Shown here: positions 20,120 to 36,906 of the stretch, piece after piece
Numbering within the stretch: position 1 is the stretch's first letter
How the letters are laid out: each line of letters opens with the position of its first letter
Assembly (NCBI GenBank): GCA_965208615.1
Contig: CBDBPB010000002.1
Coordinates: 92,666 to 156,665, forward strand
Direction of reading: 5' to 3'
DNA: 64,000 bases
From: Spirochaetota bacterium
GTDB lineage: Bacteria; Spirochaetota; UBA6919; CBDBPB01
Notes under the pieces: model-generated
What the model was told of the DNA's origin: nothing
The model's input: only the letters and a program-made list of their open reading frames with translations
Database searches by the model: none
Made by a program: the position numbers and the translations under genes

Positions 20120-21209
20120 ATGATCATAAGTAGCAAAGGGAATAGATTAAATATTAGAGCTTTGTTTTCTTTAAACAAGATTTTTATATTTGTCTTTATT
20201 TTTTTTATGTTTGTGTTAACCATGTTATTCTTCTCTAAGGAAGTTTTATCTCAGGATAGACACAGAATAGATTTTTTAAATAAAAATATAGTCAAAGGTA
20301 TTAATATAGGGGATAATTATTATAGTGAAGATAATGAGAATCTTTTGTATGCCTTAGCTCGTTTTGAGTTGAAGAACAAACAGTTTTTAATTGACGATAA
20401 TATTGTAGACTATAAAGGATATTTTAAACAGTTAAAGTTCCGGACTTATACAATTAAAAAGCGTGATACTCTTAGTAGTATTTCAAGGAAGTTTAATATA
20501 AATATTGCTACTTTAGTAAGTTTTAATAACATAGAGGTTGATAAGGCTTTAAGGATTAATAATCAGCTTTTTATTCCGAGTATGGATGGGATTTTATATT
20601 CTGTTAAAAAAGAGGATAGTTTAAGAGGTATTGTAAAGAAGTACTCAAAATATAATGTTAAGTTAGGCGACATAATTTATTTAAATAATATAGTAAATAA
20701 CAAGATAATAGAGAAAGAGCGTCTTTTTATTCCTGGAGCAAAAATAGCTAAGAATCTTCTTATTAAGAAGTTAGAGCATACTTTTGCAATACCGGCAAAA
20801 GGTAGGATAACATCATTAGTGGGGATGAGGCCTAGTATTTTTAAGGGTCCCCAAAAAGGGTTATGAATTTCATCCAGGGGTTGATATAAAGGCCTATTAT
20901 GGTTCACCTGTGAGGGCGGCCAAAAGTGGACGAATAAAGTTAGCAGGTAGAGTTAAGGGATATGGAAAAGTAATTTTCATTAACCATGGTAATGGTTTAC
21001 AGACTAGATATGGTCATTTATCCCGGATATTGGTAAAACGTGGAGAGAGGGTAAGGAAGAGGCAGGTAATTGGGAAGGTAGGCAGTACTGGCAATTCTAC
21101 AGGTCCACATCTTCATTTTGAAGTGAGAAAGTATGGTAAGGTAGTTAATCTTACTCGTAAGTTTAAGGGATTAAGGTTAAAGCGTGGCGGATACTGGAAG
21201 TGGAATTAA
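20120..21209 (+). CDS. LysM-domain M23 metallopeptidase, interrupted by a +1 shift near 20849-20860
   Basis: Two LysM-like segments in ORF 20120-20866. M23 signature continues in the next frame (EFHPGVDI...GSTGNSTGPHLHFEV) in ORF 20910-21209. Shift sits in a C4-A5-G3 run. Confidence 0.65.
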
Positions 21210-21240
21210 TTTTATAATTTGTAGACATATTATAGTTTTT

Positions 21241-21480
21241 ACTCATAGGGGATTAGGCATACTTTTTTTAGATTTACTGTGTGTTATCAAAGGTATTACT
21301 ATGCTATTGTAAAGAGGTTTTGCTAGTTTACTTTTTATAATTGTTGTTTATTTATAGGGGATTAGGCATACTTTTTTTAGATTTACTGTGTGTTATCAAA
21401 GGTATTACTATGCTATTGTAAAGAGGTTTTGCTAGTTTACTTTTTATAATTGTTGTTTACTCATAGGGGATTAGGTATAC
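21241..21480 (+). repeat. Tandem repeat, ~110 bp unit, about 2.2 copies
   Basis: Unit starting ...ataggggattaggcatactttttttagatttactgtg... recurs at 21241, 21351 and partially at 21459. Confidence 0.75.
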
Positions 21481-21859
21481 TTTTTTGAAGTTTTACACAT
21501 AACGTCAATATCTAATATTTAAATAATCCGCTCTACACCTTTATGGAACTGCAAATCCGTTAACACTTAATAAGGGTCTATAATCCTTAGTCTCAGTAAG
21601 GGATTCTTAATAGCTCCCGTAATGATGACTACTTGCATAAAAAGTGATATTTTGTGTTAATTACTAAGGCATTTAAACAGCACTTAAAGAGCATATAGGG
21701 ATAACCTGCTTGACACAGGAAAATAACTTTTCCATAAATATTTTAACTTTCCTGTTCCACAAAGAGATATAAAATACATCTGCCTTTACGTTATATGTCT
21801 TGCTTTTTACCTTGTAGACTTTGTCATAACTATGTCATAAAATGACAACTGAATTATTA
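21481..21859 (+). repeat. Conserved noncoding block, copy A (paired with 58116-58570)
   Basis: Near-identical long stretch in both loci (e.g. ...ccgctctacacctttatggaactgcaaatccgttaacactt...cttgacacaggaaaataacttttcc...); no ORF of 60 aa or more in any frame. Confidence 0.7.
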
Positions 21860-22712
21860 AATAATATCCCTTTAGCCTTAACAAAAAATAAATATACTTA
21901 CTCGTCTGACTTAAAGTCTAAGCGTACAAGTTTATATGCATGTCTATTTTCAACAACCTAAACTTGATGGAGTATCCGTTATACTAAACCATAAAAAAGA
22001 AAAACTATATTCCCTTTAACCTCAACAAAAAATAAATATACCTACCAGCCCTAACTCAAGGTCTGAGCGTACAAGTTTATATGCATGTCTATTGTCAACA
22101 ACCTAAACTTGATAGAGTGCCTGTTATACTAAACCATAAAAAAGAAAAACTATATTCCCCTTAGCCTCAACAAAAAATAAATATACTTACTCGCCTGACT
22201 TAAAGTCTAAGCGTACAAGTTTATATGCATGTCTATTGTCAACAACCTAAACTTGATGAAGTATCCGTTATACTAAACCATAAAAAAGAAAAACTATATT
22301 CCCCTTAGCCTCAACAAAAAATAAATATACTTACTCGCCTGACTTAAAGTCTAAGCGTACAAGTTTATATGCATGTCTATTGTCAACAACCTAAACTTGA
22401 TGAAGTATCCGTTATACTAAACCATAAAAAAGAAAAACTATATTCCCCTTAGCCTTAACAAAAAATAAATATACTTACCCGCCTGACTTAAAGTCTAAGC
22501 GTACAAGTTTATATGCATGTCTATTGCCAACAACCTAAACTTGATGGAGTGCCTGTTATACTAAACCATAAAAAAGAAAAGCTATATTCCCCTTAGCCTT
22601 AACAAAAAATAAATATACTTACTCGCCTGACTCAAGGTCTGAGCGTACAAGTTTATATGCATGTCTATTGTCAACAACCTAAACTTGATGAAGTATCCGT
22701 TATACTAAATTA
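21860..22712 (+). repeat. Tandem array, 144-145 bp unit, about 6 copies
   Basis: Landmark acaaaaaata recurs at 21881, 22025, 22170, 22314, 22458, 22602. Unit contains ...gtctaagcgtacaagtttatatgcatgtctattgtcaacaacctaaacttgatg.... Confidence 0.85.
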
Positions 22713-23070: not shown

Positions 23071-25524
23071 ATGTTCCTTAAGGTTTGCAAGGTAACAAGA
23101 ACTACGGATGCTTATATTAACGCTGTTACTTGTAATAAGACTCTCGAGGATAAGTGTAATGGTGAGTGGGATTCACAAGACTGTATAGCGTCTCTTGGTA
23201 CGGCAATTGGGGTATGTAGAGTAGAAAAAGATACAACTACTCGTACTGACGTTGTTACTTGTAATACGATGGTTCAAAGTGAGTGTGATGACAAACTAGG
23301 TGAGTGGGGCTTGCAAAGCTGTACTACAAATCCTGGTACTAAAAGGCTAAAAGCAGTGCCAGAAGCAATATGCAAGGTAATTAGAGATACAGCTTCTCAT
23401 GCTAATGTAGTTACTTGTAATACAATGGTTCAAAGTGAGTGTAGTAAAAGTAAAAGAAAAGGTAATTGGAATCCACAAATCTGTAATCCAGATATTGGTA
23501 CGCCAATAAGTAAAACCTGTAAGATAATAAAAGATTCGGATACTCATACTGATGTTGTTACTTGTCAGACTACTACTAAGGCTGATTGTCCAAGTCCAAG
23601 TGTGTGGGATCCAAAAACCTGTATTCCGTCTATTGGTAATACATGTAAGATAACAGAAAATACGGATAGTCATACCGGCGTTGTTACTTGTAAAAAAACT
23701 ACTAAGGATGATTGTCAAGGTGAGGGGCGTGCGTGGGGTCTACTAGCCTGTACTGAGTCTATTGGTACTCCAATAACTAAGACATGCAAAGTGGAAAAAG
23801 ATACGGATAGTCATACCGGCGTTGTTACTTGTGATAAAACTACTAAAACTCAGTGTGATACTGATAAGGGTACCTGGGACCCACCAAGCTGTGAGCCGTC
23901 TGATGGTACAAAAAGGCAAACACCAGTGGAAGAAAAGGTTTGTAAGATAACAAAAGATACGGATACTCATACAGGCGTTGTTACTTGCGATAAGAATATT
24001 AAGACTGAGTGTGATACTAAACAAGGTGAGTGGGATCCACAAACCTGTACTCCGTTTACTGGTCAGCCCAAGACTAAGATTTGTAAGATAACAACAGAGA
24101 CGTATACTCATACAGGCGTTGTTACTTGTGATACAACTACTAAGGCTCAGTGTGATACTGATAATGGTGATTGGGACTCACAAAGCTGTACTACAAATCC
24201 TGGTACGCCTAAGACTAAGGTTTGCAAGATAACAGAAAATACGCCTACTCGTAGAGGTGTTGTTACTTGTGATACAGCTACTAAAACTCAGTGTGATACT
24301 GATAAGGGTGAGTGGGGCTTAAAAAGTTGTACTCCATCTAAGGGTAAGGCAATTAAGGTTTGTAAGATAACAACAGAGACGCCTAGTCATACAGGCGTTG
24401 TTACTTGTGAGAAAACTACTAAAACTAAGTGTGATACTAAACATGGTGAGTGGGACTCAACAAACTGTACTCCGTCTGCTGGTACGCCCATACCAAATGG
24501 TACGCCCATACCACCTGGGGTTGTTTTTGTAAAAGCTGGAACTCGTACTACTAAAAATGGGAAATCCTGGAATACTGCTTATAGTGATCTTCAAAAAGGT
24601 ATTGAGGAAGCCTCAGAAAAGTTTAAGTCTACTAAAAAACCTGTTAAGGTATATGTAGCCCAAGGGACTTATAAGCCTCAGAGTAGGCCAAATGGTGGTA
24701 CTAGTGATCGTCATAACCATTTTTCATTAAGGAATGGTGTAGAGGTTATTGGGGGTTTTCCTGGTCTAATTACTGGTGAGTCTAATAATCCTAACTACTA
24801 TAAGACTGTCCTAAGCGGTGATATCAGAAGAGTGGGCGATGATAGTGATAACGCCTATCATGTTTTTTATCATCCAGCTACTGCAAAGCTAGATAACACT
24901 GCAAAGTTAGTAGGGGTTATAATTACCAAAGGCAATACTAATACTAGTAGTAATTCCCATAGTTCTGGAGGAGGCATGTTTAATTATGAGAGCTCTCCAA
25001 CGTTAACAAATGTGGAGTTTAATAGTAATACGGCATCATACGGAGGGGGCATGGATAATACTAGTAGTAGCTCTCCAACGTTAACAAATGTGGAGTTTAA
25101 TAGTAATACGGCATCATACGGAGGGGGCATGTTTAATTTTAATAATAGCTCTCCAACGTTAAAAGATGTGACTTTTACTAGTAATACGGCTACTTATAGA
25201 GGAGGGGGCATGTATAATTATAATGAGAGCTCTCCCACTTTAACAAATGTGACTTTTACTAGTAATACGGCTAATAGGTACGGAGGGGGCATGGTTAATT
25301 GGGGTAATAGCAAGCCCACTTTAGATAATACGGTGATTTTTAATAAAAACATTGCTGGTAGTGTTGCTAATAGCCAAATAGGCAAAGGCGGGGCTATTTA
25401 TAATTATTCCTCAAGCATAACAGGCACACCAACCTATGGAACGGGTACTAATGAAAATAAAAAGGTTGTCAAAAATAATAATGGCACATATAAACTTATA
25501 AAGTCAAACCTTGACTCAGACTAA
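23071..25524 (+). CDS. Pmp-like repeat surface protein, paralog 1; lacks signal peptide
   Basis: About ten Cys-rich ~47-51 aa modules (CKITKDTDTHTGVVTCDKTTKTxCDTDKGxWDPxSC), then a choice-of-anchor / beta-helix-like region and five or more GGGM-Y/F-N...VTFTSN units. The frame is open upstream to 22765 but has no ATG/GTG/TTG before 23071. Confidence 0.6.
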   Translation: MFLKVCKVTRTTDAYINAVTCNKTLEDKCNGEWDSQDCIASLGTAIGVCRVEKDTTTRTDVVTCNTMVQSECDDKLGEWGLQSCTTNPGTKRLKAVPEAICKVIRDTASHANVVTCNTMVQSECSKSKRKGNWNPQICNPDIGTPISKTCKIIKDSDTHTDVVTCQTTTKADCPSPSVWDPKTCIPSIGNTCKITENTDSHTGVVTCKKTTKDDCQGEGRAWGLLACTESIGTPITKTCKVEKDTDSHTGVVTCDKTTKTQCDTDKGTWDPPSCEPSDGTKRQTPVEEKVCKITKDTDTHTGVVTCDKNIKTECDTKQGEWDPQTCTPFTGQPKTKICKITTETYTHTGVVTCDTTTKAQCDTDNGDWDSQSCTTNPGTPKTKVCKITENTPTRRGVVTCDTATKTQCDTDKGEWGLKSCTPSKGKAIKVCKITTETPSHTGVVTCEKTTKTKCDTKHGEWDSTNCTPSAGTPIPNGTPIPPGVVFVKAGTRTTKNGKSWNTAYSDLQKGIEEASEKFKSTKKPVKVYVAQGTYKPQSRPNGGTSDRHNHFSLRNGVEVIGGFPGLITGESNNPNYYKTVLSGDIRRVGDDSDNAYHVFYHPATAKLDNTAKLVGVIITKGNTNTSSNSHSSGGGMFNYESSPTLTNVEFNSNTASYGGGMDNTSSSSPTLTNVEFNSNTASYGGGMFNFNNSSPTLKDVTFTSNTATYRGGGMYNYNESSPTLTNVTFTSNTANRYGGGMVNWGNSKPTLDNTVIFNKNIAGSVANSQIGKGGAIYNYSSSITGTPTYGTGTNENKKVVKNNNGTYKLIKSNLDSD

Positions 25525-25762: not shown

Positions 25763-27136
25763 ATGACAAAAAAGAATTATTTAAACATTTTAATAATACT
25801 ATTAATTAGTATTTCGTTAGTTAGGGGCAAGTGCGATTCCGATAAGGTAATAAGTCCTCCTTCTGATGGTACAGAAAGGCCAGAACCAGTGGAAGAAAAG
25901 GTTTGTAAGATAACAACAGATACGGATACTCGTAGAGGTGTTGTTACTTGTGAAAAGAATACTACTAATTGTCAAGGTGAGTGGGTCGTAGGATGTCGTC
26001 CATCTAACGGTATACTTATTCCAAAAGCTCAAAAAGATCAAATTTTTGTAAAAGCTTTAAACCAAGATGAAAGGCGCTCTAATGAAGATGGAAAGTCCTG
26101 GACAACTGCCTTTAGTGATCTTCAAAAAGGTATTAAGTATGCTTTTGAGAATAATAAAAAGATGGTATATGTAGCCCAAGGGACTTATAAGCCTACTAGT
26201 TATCCAAATGGTGGTAGTGGTGATGATCGTTATAAGCATTTTTCATTAAGGAATGGTATAGAGGTTATTGGAGGCTTTCCCGGTGAAAAGCTTGATGAGC
26301 CTAATAATCCTGAGCAATATGAGACTATTCTAAGCGGTGATATTGGAACTAAAGATGATAGAGATAACGTCTATCATGTTTTTTATCATCCTGATGGTAC
26401 AAACCTAAATAACTCAGCAAAGCTAGCTGGGGTTACAATTACCCAAGGCTATGCTTATTTTGCGTCTCCTGATGTTAATGAGCCTCGTAAGTTAGGAGGG
26501 GGCATGTATAATTTTAAGAGCTCTCCAACGTTAACAACTGTGACTTTTCGTAATAATACGGCTAGAGATGGAGGGGGCATGTATAATTTTAAGAGCTCTC
26601 CAACGTTAACAGGTGTGGCTTTTACTGAAAATACGGCTATTACCGGAGGGGGCATGCGTAATTATAAGGATAGCTCCCCAACGTTAAAAGATGTGACTTT
26701 TACTAAAAATGAGGCTACTGTTAACGGAGGGGGCATGCATAATTGGGATAATAGCTCTCCAAAGTTAACAGATGTGACTTTTACTAAGAATAAGGCTACT
26801 ATTAACGGAGGGGGCGGCATGTATAATTATTATTATAGCTCCCCAAAGTTAACAGGTGTGACTTTTAATAGTAATACGGCTAGTAGGTACGGAGGGGGCA
26901 TGTTTAATTTTGTTGGTTGCTCTCCAGAGTTCATAAGTAATGTGGTTTTTAATAAAAACATTGTTGGTAGTGTTGGTAGTGACCTAATAAGCTACGGCGG
27001 GGCTATTTATAATAGTAAGACTTCAGCCATAACAGGCACTCCAACCTATGGAACGGGTGATGATGAAAATAAAAAGGTTGTCAAAAATACAGATGGCACA
27101 TATAGTTTTGTAAAGTCAAACAGTTGGCCATGGTAA
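25763..27136 (+). CDS. Pmp-like repeat surface protein, paralog 2 (short form)
   Basis: Own N-terminal hydrophobic leader; one Cys module, then the same beta-helix-like region and about seven GGGM units; same C-terminal segment (ITGTPTYGTG.DENKKVVKN) and 3' flank as paralog 1. Confidence 0.7.
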   Translation: MTKKNYLNILIILLISISLVRGKCDSDKVISPPSDGTERPEPVEEKVCKITTDTDTRRGVVTCEKNTTNCQGEWVVGCRPSNGILIPKAQKDQIFVKALNQDERRSNEDGKSWTTAFSDLQKGIKYAFENNKKMVYVAQGTYKPTSYPNGGSGDDRYKHFSLRNGIEVIGGFPGEKLDEPNNPEQYETILSGDIGTKDDRDNVYHVFYHPDGTNLNNSAKLAGVTITQGYAYFASPDVNEPRKLGGGMYNFKSSPTLTTVTFRNNTARDGGGMYNFKSSPTLTGVAFTENTAITGGGMRNYKDSSPTLKDVTFTKNEATVNGGGMHNWDNSSPKLTDVTFTKNKATINGGGGMYNYYYSSPKLTGVTFNSNTASRYGGGMFNFVGCSPEFISNVVFNKNIVGSVGSDLISYGGAIYNSKTSAITGTPTYGTGDDENKKVVKNTDGTYSFVKSNSWPW

Positions 27137-27752: not shown

Positions 27753-28110
27753 ATGAGAGAAGAATTTATACCTATTGTTATATATACGGCTTTAGTTGTT
27801 GGTTTAGGTCTTTTATTTTTACTTATGTCGAGGTATATTGGGCCAATAAAAAAGTCTAAGCAGAAGTATGATCCTTATGAGTGTGGAGTAGAGCCAATAG
27901 ATTCTTTAAGAAAGAGGTTTCATATAAGGTTTTTACTTAATAGCTGCGTTATTTATTTTGTTTGACATTGAAACTGTATTTTTATTGCCATGGGCGGTAA
28001 CTTTTGCTGATATGACTATATTAGCTATAGTTGAGGTTGTTGTATTCATAGGTATTTTGGCTATTGGACTATTATATATTATTAAAAAGAAGGTATTTCA
28101 ATGGGATTAG
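27753..28110 (+). CDS. nuoA: NADH-quinone oxidoreductase subunit A, with apparent +1 shift in a T5 run at 27930-27934
   Basis: N-terminal part ...YECGVEPIDS...RFHIRF in one frame; conserved continuation YLIAALFILFDIETVFLLPWAV... in the next frame, ending at 28110. Confidence 0.75.
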
Positions 28111-28587
28111 AGTCTCATTTACATGGTTTTATTACTACTAAGCTTGACAAGCTGGTTAATTGGGGACGAAAGAACTCATTATGGGCCTATGCCTTTTGGG
28201 GTAGCATGTTGTGCAATAGAGTTTATGGGTTTACTTTGTTCACGGTTTGATTTAGCTCGATTTGGAGCTGAGGTAATACGTTTTTCTCCAAGACAGTCTG
28301 ATTTACTTATTATATCTGGTAGGATATCTATCAAGATGTTGCCTGTTCTAATAAAGATTTATGAGCAGATGCCTGCACCAAAGTGGGTTATTAGTGTTGG
28401 AGCTTGTTGTTCATCTGGGGGAGTGTTTGATACATATACTCTTATACAGGGTGTGGATCAGTTTATACCTGTTGATTGTTATGTACCTGGTTGTCCACCA
28501 AGGCCAGAGGCATTTATAGAGGCTCTTATGTTCATTCAGAAAAAGATAGACAGCGAAAGAATACAGGATAACATACACGGAAAGTAA
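28101..28587 (+). CDS. nuoB: NADH-quinone oxidoreductase subunit B, with apparent +1 shift (tggg) near 28180-28195
   Basis: N-terminus LDKLVNWGRKNSLW in the frame from ATG 28101; conserved continuation PMPFGVACCAIEFM...GCPPRPE in the ORF 28123-28587 frame. Confidence 0.8.
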
Positions 28588-29125: not shown

Positions 29126-30331
29126 GTGGTTATATTTTTTGACATAGAAGAAGAGATTGACTCTACCATTACAATTAATGTTGGGCCTAATCATCCTGCG
29201 ACTCATGGTACTCTTAGGCTTAAGGTTGAGATGGATGGTGAGCGTATTATAAACTGTGAGCCAGAGATAGGTTTTTTACATACTGGTTTTGAGAAGCTTG
29301 CAGAGGATCGTAGTTACAATCAGTTTATAACTATGACTGATCGTATGAATTATATATCCCCTCTTAATAATAACATAGGTTTTGCTATTGCTGCAGAGGA
29401 GCTTTTAGCTATTGAAGTACCTGAGAGAGCCCAAATTATACGGGTTATTATGGCGGAGCTATCTAGGATATCTGATCATATAATATGCGTTGGTTTACAG
29501 GGTATGGACCTTGGTGCATTTAGTGTATTTTTATGGACTATGGTAGAGAGGGAGAGGTTATATGATATATTTGAGCTTGTTACTGGTGCAAGACTGACTA
29601 CTAGTTACACTCGTGTAGGGGGTTTAGCTTTTGATGTACCTTCTGACTTTGCTGAGAGAGTATTAAAGACCCTTGTTACTATAGAGAAGTGCATTGCCGA
29701 GATTGAGCTTATGCTATCCAAGAATAGGCTTTTTATTGACCGTTGCAAGGGTATTGGTTATTTGTCTAAGGAGGATGCTCTTAGTTATGGTATTACTGGT
29801 CCTATATTACGGGCTAGTGGCGTAAATTATGATATTAGGAAGGTTAAGCCTTATTCGTCTTATGATAGGTTTGATTTTCTTATACCTGTTGAGCATGCTG
29901 GTGATAGTTATGCACGTTATATTGTTCGCATAGAGGAGATGAAGCAGAGTGTGAGTATTGTAAGGCAGGCTTTAAAGGTTTTACCTGGTGGAGAGGTTAA
30001 TTATTTTAACAAGAAGCACATATTACCGAATAAGGATAAAACTTATAATGATATGGAGTCACTGATTCATCATTTTAAGGTAATAATGCCAGATGGAGAT
30101 CATGGTATACATCCACCTATTGGAGAGGTATACTCATCTACTGAGGTACCCAATGGAGAACTAGGTTTTCATGTTGTTAGTGATGGGACTTATAAGCCTT
30201 ATAGGTTAAGGGTTAGGCCTCCATCTATTTTTAACTATCAGTGTTTTGATAAGTTATCAAAAGGACATTTAGTTGCAGATATACCTGCTATTCTTAGTAG
30301 TTTAAAATATCGTAGCTGGCGAATTAGATAG
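29126..30331 (+). CDS. nuoD: NADH-quinone oxidoreductase subunit D
   Basis: 49-kDa subunit motifs (INVGPNHPATHGTLRL). An ATG at 29122 would be in frame if the T6 run at 29135-29140 carries one extra T. Confidence 0.8.
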   Translation: MVIFFDIEEEIDSTITINVGPNHPATHGTLRLKVEMDGERIINCEPEIGFLHTGFEKLAEDRSYNQFITMTDRMNYISPLNNNIGFAIAAEELLAIEVPERAQIIRVIMAELSRISDHIICVGLQGMDLGAFSVFLWTMVERERLYDIFELVTGARLTTSYTRVGGLAFDVPSDFAERVLKTLVTIEKCIAEIELMLSKNRLFIDRCKGIGYLSKEDALSYGITGPILRASGVNYDIRKVKPYSSYDRFDFLIPVEHAGDSYARYIVRIEEMKQSVSIVRQALKVLPGGEVNYFNKKHILPNKDKTYNDMESLIHHFKVIMPDGDHGIHPPIGEVYSSTEVPNGELGFHVVSDGTYKPYRLRVRPPSIFNYQCFDKLSKGHLVADIPAILSSLKYRSWRIR

Positions 30332-32136: not shown

Positions 32137-33625
32137 ATGCCAGAGGTAAATAAGTTATTAAGTGTTACAATTGACGGTCAGAAGTATGAGGTTAAGGAAG
32201 GTTTAACTGTACTACAGGCATGTTTAGATTTTGGTATTGATGTGCCTTATTTTTGTTATCATCCTTGTTTATCTACTGCTGGTAATTGTAGGATGTGTTT
32301 AGTTAAAATAGATAAAATACCTAAGCTTGCTATATCATGTGCTACTATGGTTGCTGAGGGGATGAACATATACACTAAAGACCCAGAGGTAATTAAGGCT
32401 CGTAATGCTATTATGGAGTTTTTATTAATAAATCATCCACTTGACTGTCCTGTATGTGATCAGGCTGGTGAATGTACTTTACAGGACTACTCATACCGAC
32501 ATGGGAGAGATTCGGGCAGGTTTACCGAAGAGCGTAATGTTAGGCACAAAAAAGACTTTGGGCCAAATGTCAAATATTGGGGTAGTCGGTGTATTATGTG
32601 TACAAGGTGTATACGTTTTTGTCAGGAGGTTAGTGGTACTGACGAGTTATACGCTTTTAACAGAGGGGATCGTTCTGTAATTGATATATTCCCTGGCATA
32701 GAGCTTAATAATCCATTATCTATGAATGTGGTTGATATTTGTCCTGTTGGAGCTTTAGTTAGTTCTCATTTTTTATATCAGGCACGGGTATGGAATATGG
32801 AGCAAAGGCATAGCCTATGTATAGAGTGTTCTACTGGATGTCATAACTAGGGTTGATTCTTTAGGCAATAGGATTAAGCGTATAGTACCTAGTTCAAATG
32901 ATCGATTTATGTGTGATCATGGTAGGCTAAGTTATGGATATATGTATTCTGAGGATAGGCTTCGTTATCCTTTGGTTAATGGGGATAAGTTAGCTTCGTG
33001 GTCAAAGGTAATGTCCGTATTTAGGGATAAGATAAGACGGTATGCTAGTAAGTCTAGTAGGTTAGCTTTTTTGATTTCTGCATGGAATACTAATGAGGCT
33101 ATGTTTATGGTTAACAGGCTTAAGGATAGTTGCTTAGACAAGAGTGACGTCTATTTGTATTATAAGCCTGATGAAGAGGATAAGGTTTTTCCTAAGTTTA
33201 GGATTAGTGGTGATCGTAATCCTAATATAAATGGTTTTAAGGCGGTTTTTAAAACGGGTGACATTAAAAAGCACTCAGTTAATTTATTAGTAGATAGGGT
33301 TAAGGCTAAAGAGGTTGATGTAGTTATAATAATAGGGGGTATATCCAGTGGATATATGCCTGAGAGTATTACTAATGTTTTATCTGATCTTAAAGATGTT
33401 ATTGTAATAGATTATATTAGTTCATCTTTTAGTAAGGCTGCGAGTTTGGTTTTACCTTCACTTAGTTATGCTGAGAAGGCTGGTAGTTATGTTAATGATC
33501 AGCTTAAGGTTAAAGCTGTTAAGCCTGTTATCAATCCTTTTACCCCTGGTAAGTCAGAAGATGTTATTTTACAAGAGCTTATCATTGCCCTATCAGAAAA
33601 AGGTGAGGTTTTTATCTACTGCTGA
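32137..33625 (+). CDS. nuoG: NADH-quinone oxidoreductase subunit G (short form), with apparent +1 shift near 32845-32852
   Basis: N-terminal 2Fe-2S / 4Fe-4S cysteine clusters in ORF 32137-32850. Continuation ...RVDSLGNRIKRIVPSSNDRFMCDHGR... in the next frame (ORF 32909-33625). Confidence 0.75.
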
Positions 33626-33735
33626 TATATTTGATGAGATGAATAGACAAGGAGTTTTTGATAGTTTAGTTAGTGAAGTAGGAGTAAAGAGCTAGCATTA
33701 AGTATTTAATTTTTGTTATATAGGGGTTTAGTAAC

Positions 33736-35359
33736 TTGGGACAACAGTTAAACTTGTTAGATATTGATAATGATAATAATTATATAACTATTAGTGAGGC
33801 ATCTAAGTGGGCAAGTGAATACTTGAACAGAAGTGTGACTAAGTCTCAAATATCATATTTAATAAATTATGCTAGGGTAGGGTCAATTAAGATTGATAGA
33901 AAAAATCATATAAACCTTAATGAGCTAAAAAATTATTATGACAATAGAAGTGAGAATGAAAAAAATAAGATTCTTAATGGGTTAAGTAAAGACGTTAACC
34001 TGTCCCTTTCATTTTCTGAATATAATGAATATGAGAGGACAAAGCATGTTCATAGGTTGCATCCATATAAAGGCAAATTTATTACTCAGCTGGTGGAGTA
34101 TTTTTTAAGTAATCATACTGACGGCTTTAAAAAAGAGGTTTTCTTTAAACAGGGAGATATTGTATTAGATCCTTTTGCAGGCTCTGGAACTACTTTAGTT
34201 CAAGCTAATGAGTTAGGAATACATTCTATTGGTATTGAGCTTTCTAGTTATAATGCTATTATTTCTAGAGTAAAGACTGAAAGCTATGAAATGGACAAAA
34301 TGAGACAAGAAGGTGATAGAATTATAGAGCTATTATATCACCTTAAAAAAGAGACTACTGCTTATTATGATGAGTTAGATAAGCTTATTAGGTTATATAA
34401 TGAAAAGTACTTCCCATCTCCTAAATATCGAAAGGCTATACATGCTAAAGAGATTAATGAAAAGAGCTATGGGAAAGAAGTATTAGGTAAATTTAACTTT
34501 GATTATGAAAAAGCTATTAAAAAAGTTTAATAAAATACACCCAGATAAATTATTTGAGAATAAAAGTCATCATAGTTTTTTAGAGTATTGGCTTACAGAG
34601 GATATCCAAAAAGAGATTAAAGTTATAAAAGAGATAATTGAGCTTATCAAAGATGAGAAGTTAAAATATCTTTTTATGGTTATATTGGGCAGGGCTGTTA
34701 GATCGTGTAGAGCAACAAAACATATAGATTTAGCAACTTTAACAAAGCCTCAATTTGCTCCTTATTATTGTGAGAGAAAGCATTTTAAATTGTGTAGACC
34801 AGTAAATAGTTTATTAAGTCATTTTAAGAAATATTATTTGGATTCGATTAGAAGGATTAAAAGTTTTAGTATGCTTAAAACTAACGCTTTAAATCTTGTT
34901 TTAGAAGGTGACTCATATAGTATTGAGCTTGATAAGGTGTTGGAGGTTAAGTCTTTTTTTAATAAAGCAGGTAAATATAAAATTGATGGGATATTCACAT
35001 CACCTCCTTATGTTGGTCAAATTGATTATCATGAGCAACATCTATATGCTTATGAGATTTTTAATTTGCCTATGAAAAAGGATAGAGAAATAGGGATATT
35101 AGGTCTTGGTAAAAGTAAAAAGGCAAGGGATCAATATTCTAAGGGTATTACAAAAGTATTTAGAAATTTGAAATCTTATTTAAAACCTTATGCTAACTGC
35201 TTTATAGTTGCTAATGATCGGTTGCAATTGTATCCAGATATAATAAATAAGTCAGGATATGAGCTTGTAAATGAGTTTAAGAGACCTGTACTAAATAGAG
35301 TTGAGAAAGATAGACGAGTATATGAAGAAAGTATTTTTCATATAAGGCCTAAAAGTTAA
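33736..35359 (+). CDS. DNA amino-methyltransferase (N6-A or N4-C), read as one gene with +1 shift in an A6 run near 34523-34528
   Basis: First ORF carries HRLHPYKGKF and SAM motif VLDPFAGSGTT; second ORF carries catalytic motif TSPPY. The second frame is open from 34487, so one extra A joins them. Confidence 0.65.
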
Positions 35360-35361
35360 AT

Positions 35362-35844
35362 ATGTCATTATCAGGTGAAACACATTATCAGATTGCTGGG
35401 CTACTTAAAAAGGCAGTTATAAAAAAGTTAGATAGTTATGCGATGTATTCATTTATTCACTCGATGAACACAACCCTTGGAATGTCAATATGGGAGCAGA
35501 TAGCTAAAATATTAGCTAAAGGTGCTGGAATGGAAGTTAAACGACAATATAAACTATTAGGTGAAATAGATAAACCTACTGAAGCTTTAATTGATGACAA
35601 TGCACAAGTTGAAACGAATTTAGCTATTCCCTATAATCCTTATCATCCTAAACCTTATGAAAGGTGGACTCTTGTTGGCCTTTTTGATTTAGACAGGGAA
35701 CTGTACGCAGGAGAAGATTTCTGGAACTTTGTAGCTAATGATGACATTTATAATGAATTATTAAATGTTTTTGAAGAAGTTGGTAATGAGTTAAGGCCTA
35801 AAATTGATAATAGATTTGCCCAATTTAGAGTCAATTACAATTAA
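35362..35844 (+). CDS. Hypothetical protein (160 aa) immediately downstream of the methyltransferase
   Basis: ORF only; no nuclease motif recognised by eye. Confidence 0.4.
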   Translation: MSLSGETHYQIAGLLKKAVIKKLDSYAMYSFIHSMNTTLGMSIWEQIAKILAKGAGMEVKRQYKLLGEIDKPTEALIDDNAQVETNLAIPYNPYHPKPYERWTLVGLFDLDRELYAGEDFWNFVANDDIYNELLNVFEEVGNELRPKIDNRFAQFRVNYN

Positions 35845-35868
35845 GTTTTGGGGATAAAGTGAGGGATA

Positions 35869-36906
35869 ATGCTTGAATCAGTATTAATTATGTCAATAAA
35901 GCCCTTATTAGTGGTATTTATGGTGGTTAACACTTGTGCGGTGGGTGTTTATCTTGAGCGTAGAATATCTGCATTTATACAGATGAGGCTTGGACCAAAT
36001 AGGGTTGGCCCTTTTGGTGTACTACAACCTTTAGCTGACGTTATCAAGTTTATTTTTAAAGAAGACATAATACCAAAAGACGCTAATAAAATATTATATA
36101 ATTTAGGTCCTTTTATAGCTTTTGCACCTGGTTTAATTGTTTTTGGTGTAATCCCATTTGGCACTATTGATTGGTATGATCCAAGTGCTAGTTTAGCTGT
36201 AGGTGATATTGGAGTGGGTTTATTATTTGTTCTTGCCATAAGTTCTTTGACTACTTATGGTTTGGCTTATGGAGGCTGGGCATCATATAGTAAATATTCG
36301 GTTTTAGGTGGGCTAAGGGCTTCGGCACAGATGATTAGTTTTGAGATAGCTATGGGGCTATCGTTAATAAGCATAATTATGACAGCTGGGTCGGTTAATT
36401 TAAATGAGATGGTTATCAGTCAGACAGGTACTATTTGGGGTTTTTTACCTAATTGGCTTTGTTTTAAGCAGCCGCTTGCATTTTTAATATTTTTTATAAC
36501 TGCTTTTGCAGAGACTAACCGCTTACCTTTTGACATGCCAGAGGCTGAACCAGAGATAGTGGGGGGGTATCACACTGAGTATAGTGGACTTAAGTTTGCA
36601 CTTTATATGCTTGGTGAGTATGCCGCTATGGTTACTATGTCTGCGGTTATTACGACGTTATTTCTTGGTGGATGGTCATTACCTTTTGTAGATAGTTTAT
36701 TTTCTTCATCTGGTCCTGTGGTTATTGCTATTGTATCCATAAGTATTTTCTCAGCAAAGACTGGTTTTTTAATATTCTTTTTCATGTGGGTCAGGTGGAC
36801 TCTACCACGTACCAGGTGGGATCAATTAATGAAGTTAGGTTGGCATATATTAATTCCTTTGGCACTTTTAAACATAGTGTTAACGGCTATCTTATTGAAG
36901 GTTTAG
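35869..36906 (+). CDS. nuoH: NADH-quinone oxidoreductase subunit H
   Basis: Polytopic membrane protein with conserved ND1-like segments (GYHTEYSGLKFALYMLGEY). Confidence 0.85.
   Translation: MLESVLIMSIKPLLVVFMVVNTCAVGVYLERRISAFIQMRLGPNRVGPFGVLQPLADVIKFIFKEDIIPKDANKILYNLGPFIAFAPGLIVFGVIPFGTIDWYDPSASLAVGDIGVGLLFVLAISSLTTYGLAYGGWASYSKYSVLGGLRASAQMISFEIAMGLSLISIIMTAGSVNLNEMVISQTGTIWGFLPNWLCFKQPLAFLIFFITAFAETNRLPFDMPEAEPEIVGGYHTEYSGLKFALYMLGEYAAMVTMSAVITTLFLGGWSLPFVDSLFSSSGPVVIAIVSISIFSAKTGFLIFFFMWVRWTLPRTRWDQLMKLGWHILIPLALLNIVLTAILLKV

Follow-up and report, generated by a model that had tools for sequence, protein, structure and literature searches.

The window analyzed here, a 64,000-nt stretch of DNA from a Spirochaetota bacterium (assembly GCA_965208615.1, contig CBDBPB010000002.1; 33.3% GC), carries a nuoA-N operon for complex I on its plus strand at ∼27.75-43.2 kb. 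Two additional genes occupy the spacer between nuoG and nuoH, and we consider it likely that they are a degraded Type II restriction-modification (R-M) cassette, composed of an orphan DNA methylase and a dead endonuclease stub. In the proposed course of events, a compact cassette with the methylase gene first would have inserted into the nuoG-nuoH spacer in the direction of the operon, where it would be read through from the nuo promoter, with expression of nuoH-N continuing past it. Two in-frame deletions would later have disabled the endonuclease by taking out its catalytic core. The methylase keeps all of its conserved motifs, its sole defect being an extra A in a run of six (A6), and the locus as judged from its sequence would now consist of the methylase without a working partner.

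Insertion into the complex I operon

As assembled, the 2243 nt between nuoG and nuoH hold three open reading frames (ORFs) on the same strand: 33736-34530 (264 amino acids, aa), 34499-35359 (286 aa) and 35362-35844 (160 aa). An earlier reading of the DNA letters without database searches (the sequence-only reading) had described here an amino-methyltransferase with the motifs DPFAGSGTT and SPPY, followed by a 160-aa ORF, and both the ORF coordinates and the motifs were recovered as it gave them. The features of the locus are as follows:

32137..33695, plus strand: nuoG, upstream boundary of the insertion, with its probable end; as assembled split into 32137-32850 and 32909-33625
33696..33735, plus strand: spacer from nuoG to the methylase gene, 40 nt, sequence read directly
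33736..35359, plus strand: methylase gene, PF01555 Type II DNA amino-methyltransferase, 540 aa once one A is removed
34168..34194, plus strand: motif I DPFAGSGTT (S-adenosylmethionine binding), residues 145-153
34519..34524, plus strand: A6 run with the frameshift; A5 would restore the frame
35000..35011, plus strand: motif IV SPPY (catalytic), residues 422-425
35362..35844, plus strand: TdeIII-family endonuclease remnant, 160 aa against the usual ∼260, with two in-frame deletions
35845..35868, plus strand: spacer between the stub and nuoH, 24 nt, with a GTGAGGG ribosome-binding-like motif
35869..36906, plus strand: nuoH, downstream boundary, intact

The end of nuoG had been placed at 33625, which is correct for the sequence as assembled, but the true end is probably 33695. 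NuoG matched the Pfam families Fer2_4, NADH-G_4Fe-4S_3, Fer4_Nqo3 and Molybdopterin. When NuoG sequences of relatives were used in tblastn, a frame switch was seen at ∼32845, and the conserved C-terminus carried on in another frame past a run of five T (T5) at 33609-33613. Removal of one base at 32845-32846 and of one T from the T5 run gave a 519-aa NuoG with a TAG stop codon at 33693-33695. With this corrected end the nuoG-nuoH gap measures 2173 nt, and the spacer to the methylase gene shrinks to 40 nt. An AGGGG ribosome-binding-like motif (33722-33726) is located 9 nt ahead of the TTG start codon of the methylase gene, and the methylase and nuclease genes are separated by 2 nt.

The 2.2-kb cassette held the methylase and nuclease genes only, and no mobility gene, integrase or transposase was present in it. 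No terminator-like sites were found in 33626-35868, and read-through transcription would therefore be likely. The search for flanking direct or inverted repeats and target duplications across 33000-36500 returned only short, low-identity chance matches, and an Rfam scan of the window returned no RNA family.

The junction was compared with that of six closer relatives (64-70% NuoH identity), taken from a protein search in which one of the closer relatives carried the name 'Spirochaetota bacterium', and with 80 more distant loci obtained by scanning a genome collection (GTDB) with NuoH, where the best NuoH identity was 54%. No NuoH more than 70% identical was present among 5.8 billion proteins. 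The nuoG-nuoH spacers of the six closest relatives were 1, 88, 89, 91, 116 and 160 nt long and free of the cassette. In the distant loci nuoG stood directly before nuoH wherever it was detected upstream, and a methylase or TdeIII match was found in none of the 80. On this comparison the cassette is evidently a real, lineage-specific insertion between nuoG and nuoH. The sequence-only reading had suggested that an R-M-like or orphan-methylase cassette was acquired horizontally, and had named relatives with the same genes at this position as evidence to the contrary; the junction proved to be uninterrupted in the six closest relatives and in the distant loci that covered nuoG, which upholds its proposal.

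The segment had also been described as more AT-rich than the flanking nuo genes. This was true, as the GC content was 29.1% for the methylase gene and 32.7% for the 160-aa ORF against 35-39% for the nuo genes on either side (28-33% overall, with 21-24% at third codon positions, GC3). For the window as a whole the difference was unremarkable, as gene means were 33.8% for GC (standard deviation 3.9) and 26.7% for GC3 (standard deviation 3.7). The insert genes were ∼1-1.5 standard deviations under these means, total GC of the 160-aa ORF was just ∼0.3 standard deviations under, and the codon-usage distance of the insert genes stayed within the normal range of the window. The comparison of GC and codon usage that had been suggested as a check thus gave a lower GC than in the nuo flanks but a host-like composition and codon usage. 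Such a weak compositional signal means that the cassette was not lately acquired from a donor of foreign composition.

The same host-like composition and codon usage speak against a chimera created when a metagenome bin was misassembled, with the cassette placed in the operon by error. Such an error is conceivable in a contig that is apparently metagenome-assembled and locally error-prone. However, the insert is located exactly in the intergenic spacer and in the orientation of the operon, is bounded by spacers of 40 and 24 nt that each hold an intact ribosome-binding-like motif, and has its closest methylase relative in the genome whose NuoH is also the closest. A chimera is therefore regarded as highly improbable.

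A different extra gene was seen in the nuo operon of the closest relative, GCA_002450905.1, where a 145-aa ORF is located between nuoF and nuoG (contig DKAT01000015.1, locus L083, 5868-6305); it had no Pfam or PHROGs match. Apparently, nuo operons in this group can accommodate extra genes at more than a single junction.

Methylase gene and clustered frameshifts

When the A6 run at 34519-34524 was shortened by one A, the ORFs 33736-34530 and 34499-35359 joined into a single 540-aa protein, the length that the sequence-only reading had expected after correction of the run. The two halves matched positions 6-264 and 257-538 of one 541-position PADLOC profile (PDLC03249 MTase_II; E-values 5e-84 and 6e-89), and the fused protein matched Pfam PF01555 (N6_N4_Mtase) with 57.1 bits at a cut-off of 26.7. 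A large-database search returned at least 8000 uninterrupted homologues of 521-546 aa, with 96-100% query coverage and 45-51% identity, none of which was split. Conservation was scored in a 24-sequence alignment that included the sequence from the window. This alignment had roughly 150 invariant columns, all of which were retained by the window methylase, and both motif I (D145 P146 F147 G149 S150 G151 T152 T153) and motif IV (S422 P423 P424 Y425) were among them. The site of the frameshift fell within a weakly conserved, indel-rich stretch of the alignment.

Both motif I and motif IV of a Type II DNA methyltransferase were thus present, in the order motif I, ∼270 residues, motif IV. This is an alpha-type order, permuted with respect to the Pfam model, and it accounts for a match to PF01555 confined to that half of the profile which holds motif I (57-171 to 111-213 of 221). 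NCBIfam gave only weak motif I matches to the methylase, far under the cut-off. A sequence search of the PDB likewise gave motif I matches only, and the weak ones were a mixture of N4-cytosine and N6-adenine enzymes.

The shift in the methylase gene was one of seven +1 homopolymer shifts, all within 20.8-34.5 kb and each mended by deleting one base:

20849-20860: M23 peptidase gene, C4/A5/G3 run, one extra base
27930-27934: nuoA, T5 run, one extra base
28184-28186: nuoB, G3 run, one extra base
30304-30307: nuoD, A4 run, one extra base
32845-32846: nuoG, first shift, AA run, one extra base
33609-33613: nuoG, second shift, T5 run, one extra base
34519-34524: methylase gene, A6 run, one extra base

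Reconstruction by one-base deletions gave full-length, well-conserved NuoB and NuoD in addition to the 519-aa NuoG, and the repair of nuoA and of the M23 peptidase gene was read from frame translations and the sequences of relatives. The genes that were checked elsewhere in the window matched Pfam profiles end to end, and nuoH to nuoN were free of frameshifts, each giving a single full-length high-scoring segment pair. The stretch at 20.8-34.5 kb is probably a locally unpolished part of the assembly. Because six shifts of the same type hit conserved genes nearby, the one in the methylase gene is probably also an error of assembly. The error-prone stretch splits nuoA, nuoB, nuoD, nuoG and the methylase gene into false fragments, which have already been deposited as separate proteins. 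The two deletions in the nuclease gene (57 and ∼250 nt, in frame) are unlike homopolymer errors.

If the A6 frameshift were real, both genes would be pseudogenes and the whole cassette would be a decaying relic in the operon. The shift is present in the sequence as given, and with a nuclease that is certainly degraded the decay of the system has begun. We nevertheless consider this unlikely, although not to the point of dismissing it. The six other shifts lie in nuoA, nuoB, nuoD, nuoG (two) and the M23 peptidase gene, whose proteins are otherwise well conserved, and all residues invariant in the methylase family are retained in a gene that shows neither a stop codon nor any further lesion. A shift in a homopolymer inside a coding region could also be a phase-variation switch, by which slipped-strand mispairing would turn the methylase on and off as in a phasevarion. 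Contingency tracts usually have at least 8 repeats, and six bases are short for one; moreover, the sister methylase gene described below has no run at the corresponding site (TTATTAAAGGAT), and housekeeping genes show the same type of shift at runs of only 2-5 bases. There is accordingly very little to recommend a switch.

The unpolished stretch takes in a repeat-rich region at 21-27 kb, in which an ORF-free part of ∼1.6 kb holds two non-coding tandem arrays:

21238-21486: array of a 109-nt unit, 2.3 copies, 96% matches, no Rfam match
21867-22709: array of a 144-nt unit, 5.8 copies, 93% matches, no Rfam match

Two paralogous repeat proteins that look secreted are encoded immediately upstream of the nuo operon, at 23071-25524 (817 aa) and 25763-27136 (457 aa). 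They contain ∼47-aa cysteine-rich modules with the motif GVVTC and C-terminal GGGMxN / SSPTLTNVTF repeats, and showed a weak match to the Chlamydia polymorphic membrane protein repeat.

Endonuclease remnant, sister cassette and target site

The 160-aa ORF, which had been put down as a protein of unknown function, was identified as a homologue of the TdeIII-family restriction endonucleases. It matched Pfam PF09520 (RE_TdeIII) with an E-value of 2.3e-32 and 113 bits at a cut-off of 27.2, and also matched three PADLOC profiles for Type II restriction endonucleases; the idea that it could be the cognate partner of the methylase was thereby strengthened. NCBIfam gave no match for the ORF, PHROGs none for the stub, and a PDB sequence search with the nuclease family gave nothing useful. 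The match to PF09520 was split into two stretches and did not amount to the full-length domain of 242 profile positions. A homology search returned 477 relatives, in Bacteria and Archaea. Those listed, apart from an identical sequence that stands as a singleton in the protein collection, were 256-265 aa long, and each aligned to the 160-aa ORF over only about half of its own length.

In the alignment, the missing parts appeared as two in-frame deletions. The first removed 19 aa (57 nt) after residue 23, at ∼35430/35431, and the second ∼84 aa (∼250 nt) after residue 77, at ∼35592-35599. No microhomology was discernible at the deletion end-points, the DNA alignment of the stub with the sister gene being too diverged. 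Invariant residues of the nuclease were defined from a 54-sequence family alignment. Deletions in the stub took out 31 of the 83 invariant columns, including E29, P134, D135, D139, E148, D152 and K157, and 50 of the 52 invariant residues outside the deletions were preserved. The predicted fold of the TdeIII family is PD-(D/E)XK, and the beta-hairpin at 132-153 falls within the part deleted from the stub. The AlphaFold2 model of the stub was poor (predicted local distance difference test score, pLDDT, of 52.8, with residues 59-122 below 50) and was built on 10 sequences only. As far as the alignment and the predicted fold indicate, the stub has lost the predicted PD-(D/E)XK catalytic core and cannot be a nuclease of this kind. 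No adjacent endonuclease with an intact catalytic centre was found. With the catalytic core of the neighbor deleted, the locus would be a degraded rather than a working R-M system. The sequence-only reading had seen no nuclease motif in the 160-aa protein, and the deletion of the motif-bearing core accounts for this.

The ORF is nonetheless open, and the high proportion of retained invariant residues that are preserved (50 of 52) could be taken to mean that the 160-aa protein is still an active endonuclease in a working R-M pair, or else that both genes encode divergent accessory subunits of complex I, an outcome that the sequence-only reading had itself named as contrary to its proposal. We find either scarcely credible. 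The 31 lost invariant residues include the PD...D/E...K positions and both core strands, and the model of the stub is poor, albeit from a shallower alignment. In addition, both genes showed strong and specific homology to R-M genes and no Pfam or NCBIfam match to a complex I subunit or accessory protein, and they were absent from all nuo operons compared.

The stub also contains the top sigma-70-like match of the 17-kb nuo region, TTGAAA-17 nt-TATAAT (11/12) at 35609-35637. It lies 230 nt upstream of nuoH, and an internal promoter for nuoH-N is possible. In the AT-rich nuo region, 90 sigma-70-like matches were found against 77.5 expected, which is no significant enrichment.

A sister cassette was located in GCA_002450905.1 (contig DKAT01000089.1, locus L081, 6387-8792), between recA and asd. 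This is the genome with the closest NuoH (70%), and its own nuoG-nuoH junction is empty. The two cassettes are alike in that the methylase gene is followed a few bases later by the nuclease gene, and the sister methylase is 61-64% identical to that of the window, compared with 45-51% for the other homologues found. They also share the motif DPFAGSGTT, a YYCERKH insertion and, in the nuclease, a gap of one residue ahead of ELY. The sister cassette differs from that of the window in its full-length 263-aa nuclease, its uninterrupted 535-aa methylase and its recA-asd site; neither recA nor asd is present in the window. The non-coding flanks of the two cassettes showed no similarity outside the ORFs. 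Divergence of the cassette between the two genomes (61-65% identity) was within the range of the nuo proteins (51-76%).

In the vicinity of the sister cassette, Pfam matches to the magnetosome families MamS_MamX and MamF_MmsF (weak) were present (contig DKAT01000089.1, locus L081, 4497-4982 and 16731-16792). These Mam-family genes hint that GCA_002450905.1 may be a magnetotactic relative.

The base methylated by the window enzyme is probably a cytosine, at N4, in a GGNCC-like site, as suggested by the SPPY motif, by a plasmid-borne relative beside a cytosine-5 methylase and by a structural match to EcoO109I. SPPY is the form of motif IV typical of N4-cytosine methylases. On a Clostridium perfringens plasmid, a TdeIII-family nuclease gene adjoins dcm (cytosine-5 methylase), and this pairing would make cytosine the protected base in the family. 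EcoO109I cuts RGGNCCY. TdeIII itself may recognize GGNCC; a literature search gave no recognition sequence for it, and the papers name TdeIII or TDE0911 without a site.

Decay of the cassette and comparison with known systems

Several points weigh against the interpretation of the locus as a degraded R-M cassette that retains its methylase. The A6 shift could be real, and the methylase would then be dead too. The clustering of the shifts would fit a locally poor assembly, and nuoH-N contain more homopolymer runs and yet no shift. The sister cassette at a different site implies that the cassette was either ancestral and then relocated, or taken up twice from one shared pool. Going by the lack of terminator-like sites, the cassette would most likely be transcribed by read-through. 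Finally, word counts of all 16 xxNxx palindromes in the 64-kb window gave observed-to-expected ratios of 0.74 for GGNCC, 1.02 for GANTC and 0.68 for the unrelated GTNAC; GGNCC was only mildly under-represented, and no more so than some unrelated words.

It is also conceivable, if rather doubtful, that its position has led to domestication of the cassette, with the methylase on the complex I transcript and in-frame nuclease deletions that avoid polarity, or that the stub retains a function. Under domestication, genome methylation would follow the expression of respiratory genes, and the nuclease would have been disabled by in-frame deletions and not by frameshifts, since any stretch left untranslated would bring Rho-dependent polarity to nuoH-N. 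In a functional stub, the 50 of 52 residues would be kept for DNA binding or dimerisation without cleavage, or for interference with incoming related nucleases.

The Pfam family of the 160-aa ORF is named after the TdeIII system of Treponema denticola ATCC 35405 (TDE0909 methylase, TDE0911 endonuclease), and the full-length relatives of the ORF are named 'TdeIII family type II restriction endonuclease' by NCBI. The window nuclease belongs to the same family as the nuclease of this system but lacks ∼100 residues, including the catalytic core. EcoO109I (PDB 1wtd), a PD-(D/E)XK enzyme of Type IIP, was the structure that the nuclease family matched best, with only 15% identity, and here too the window copy is without the part that bears the core strands. 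Experiments support a role of TdeIII as a barrier to transformation (PMC12878829, PMC8265222), and transfer of TdeIII-like pairs from one species to another is documented (PMC3467074).

R-M gene complexes can act as mobile units and insert with no additional mobility genes (Furuta, Abe and Kobayashi 2010, PMC2853133). The insert resembles these units in comprising only methylase and nuclease genes, 2.2 kb in total, with no integrase or transposase. Unlike in that mode of insertion, neither a target duplication of >30 bp nor flanking inverted repeats are detectable here, possibly as a result of erosion.

The window methylase does not fit a conserved orphan methylase of the Dam or CcrM type. Those orphans occupy one locus conserved across a clade, whereas the window methylase is lineage-specific: its gene is absent from the nuoG-nuoH junction of relatives, and the sister copy has a full-length nuclease as its partner. 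R-M systems are expected to lose the nuclease first and keep the methylase, because decay in the reverse order would be lethal. An apparently intact methylase beside a disabled nuclease corresponds to the intermediate predicted for in-situ decay, and in this respect the locus is like solitary methylases that result from loss of the partner. A pan-genome analysis suggests that solitary methylases rarely arise by in-situ loss of the nuclease (PMC4176335), and documented decay intermediates are therefore of some value. The locus may represent a snapshot of a selfish R-M system dying in place, in which the nuclease went first and the methylase survives, with a sister genome that holds an intact pair. 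It also shows that, in a little-sampled lineage, a foreign cassette of 2.2 kb can sit within a complex I operon, which is normally contiguous. In comparison with the known systems the parts are ordinary, as the TdeIII family is named and widespread; less common are the location in a complex I operon and the fact that both a decay intermediate and an intact sister system are visible.

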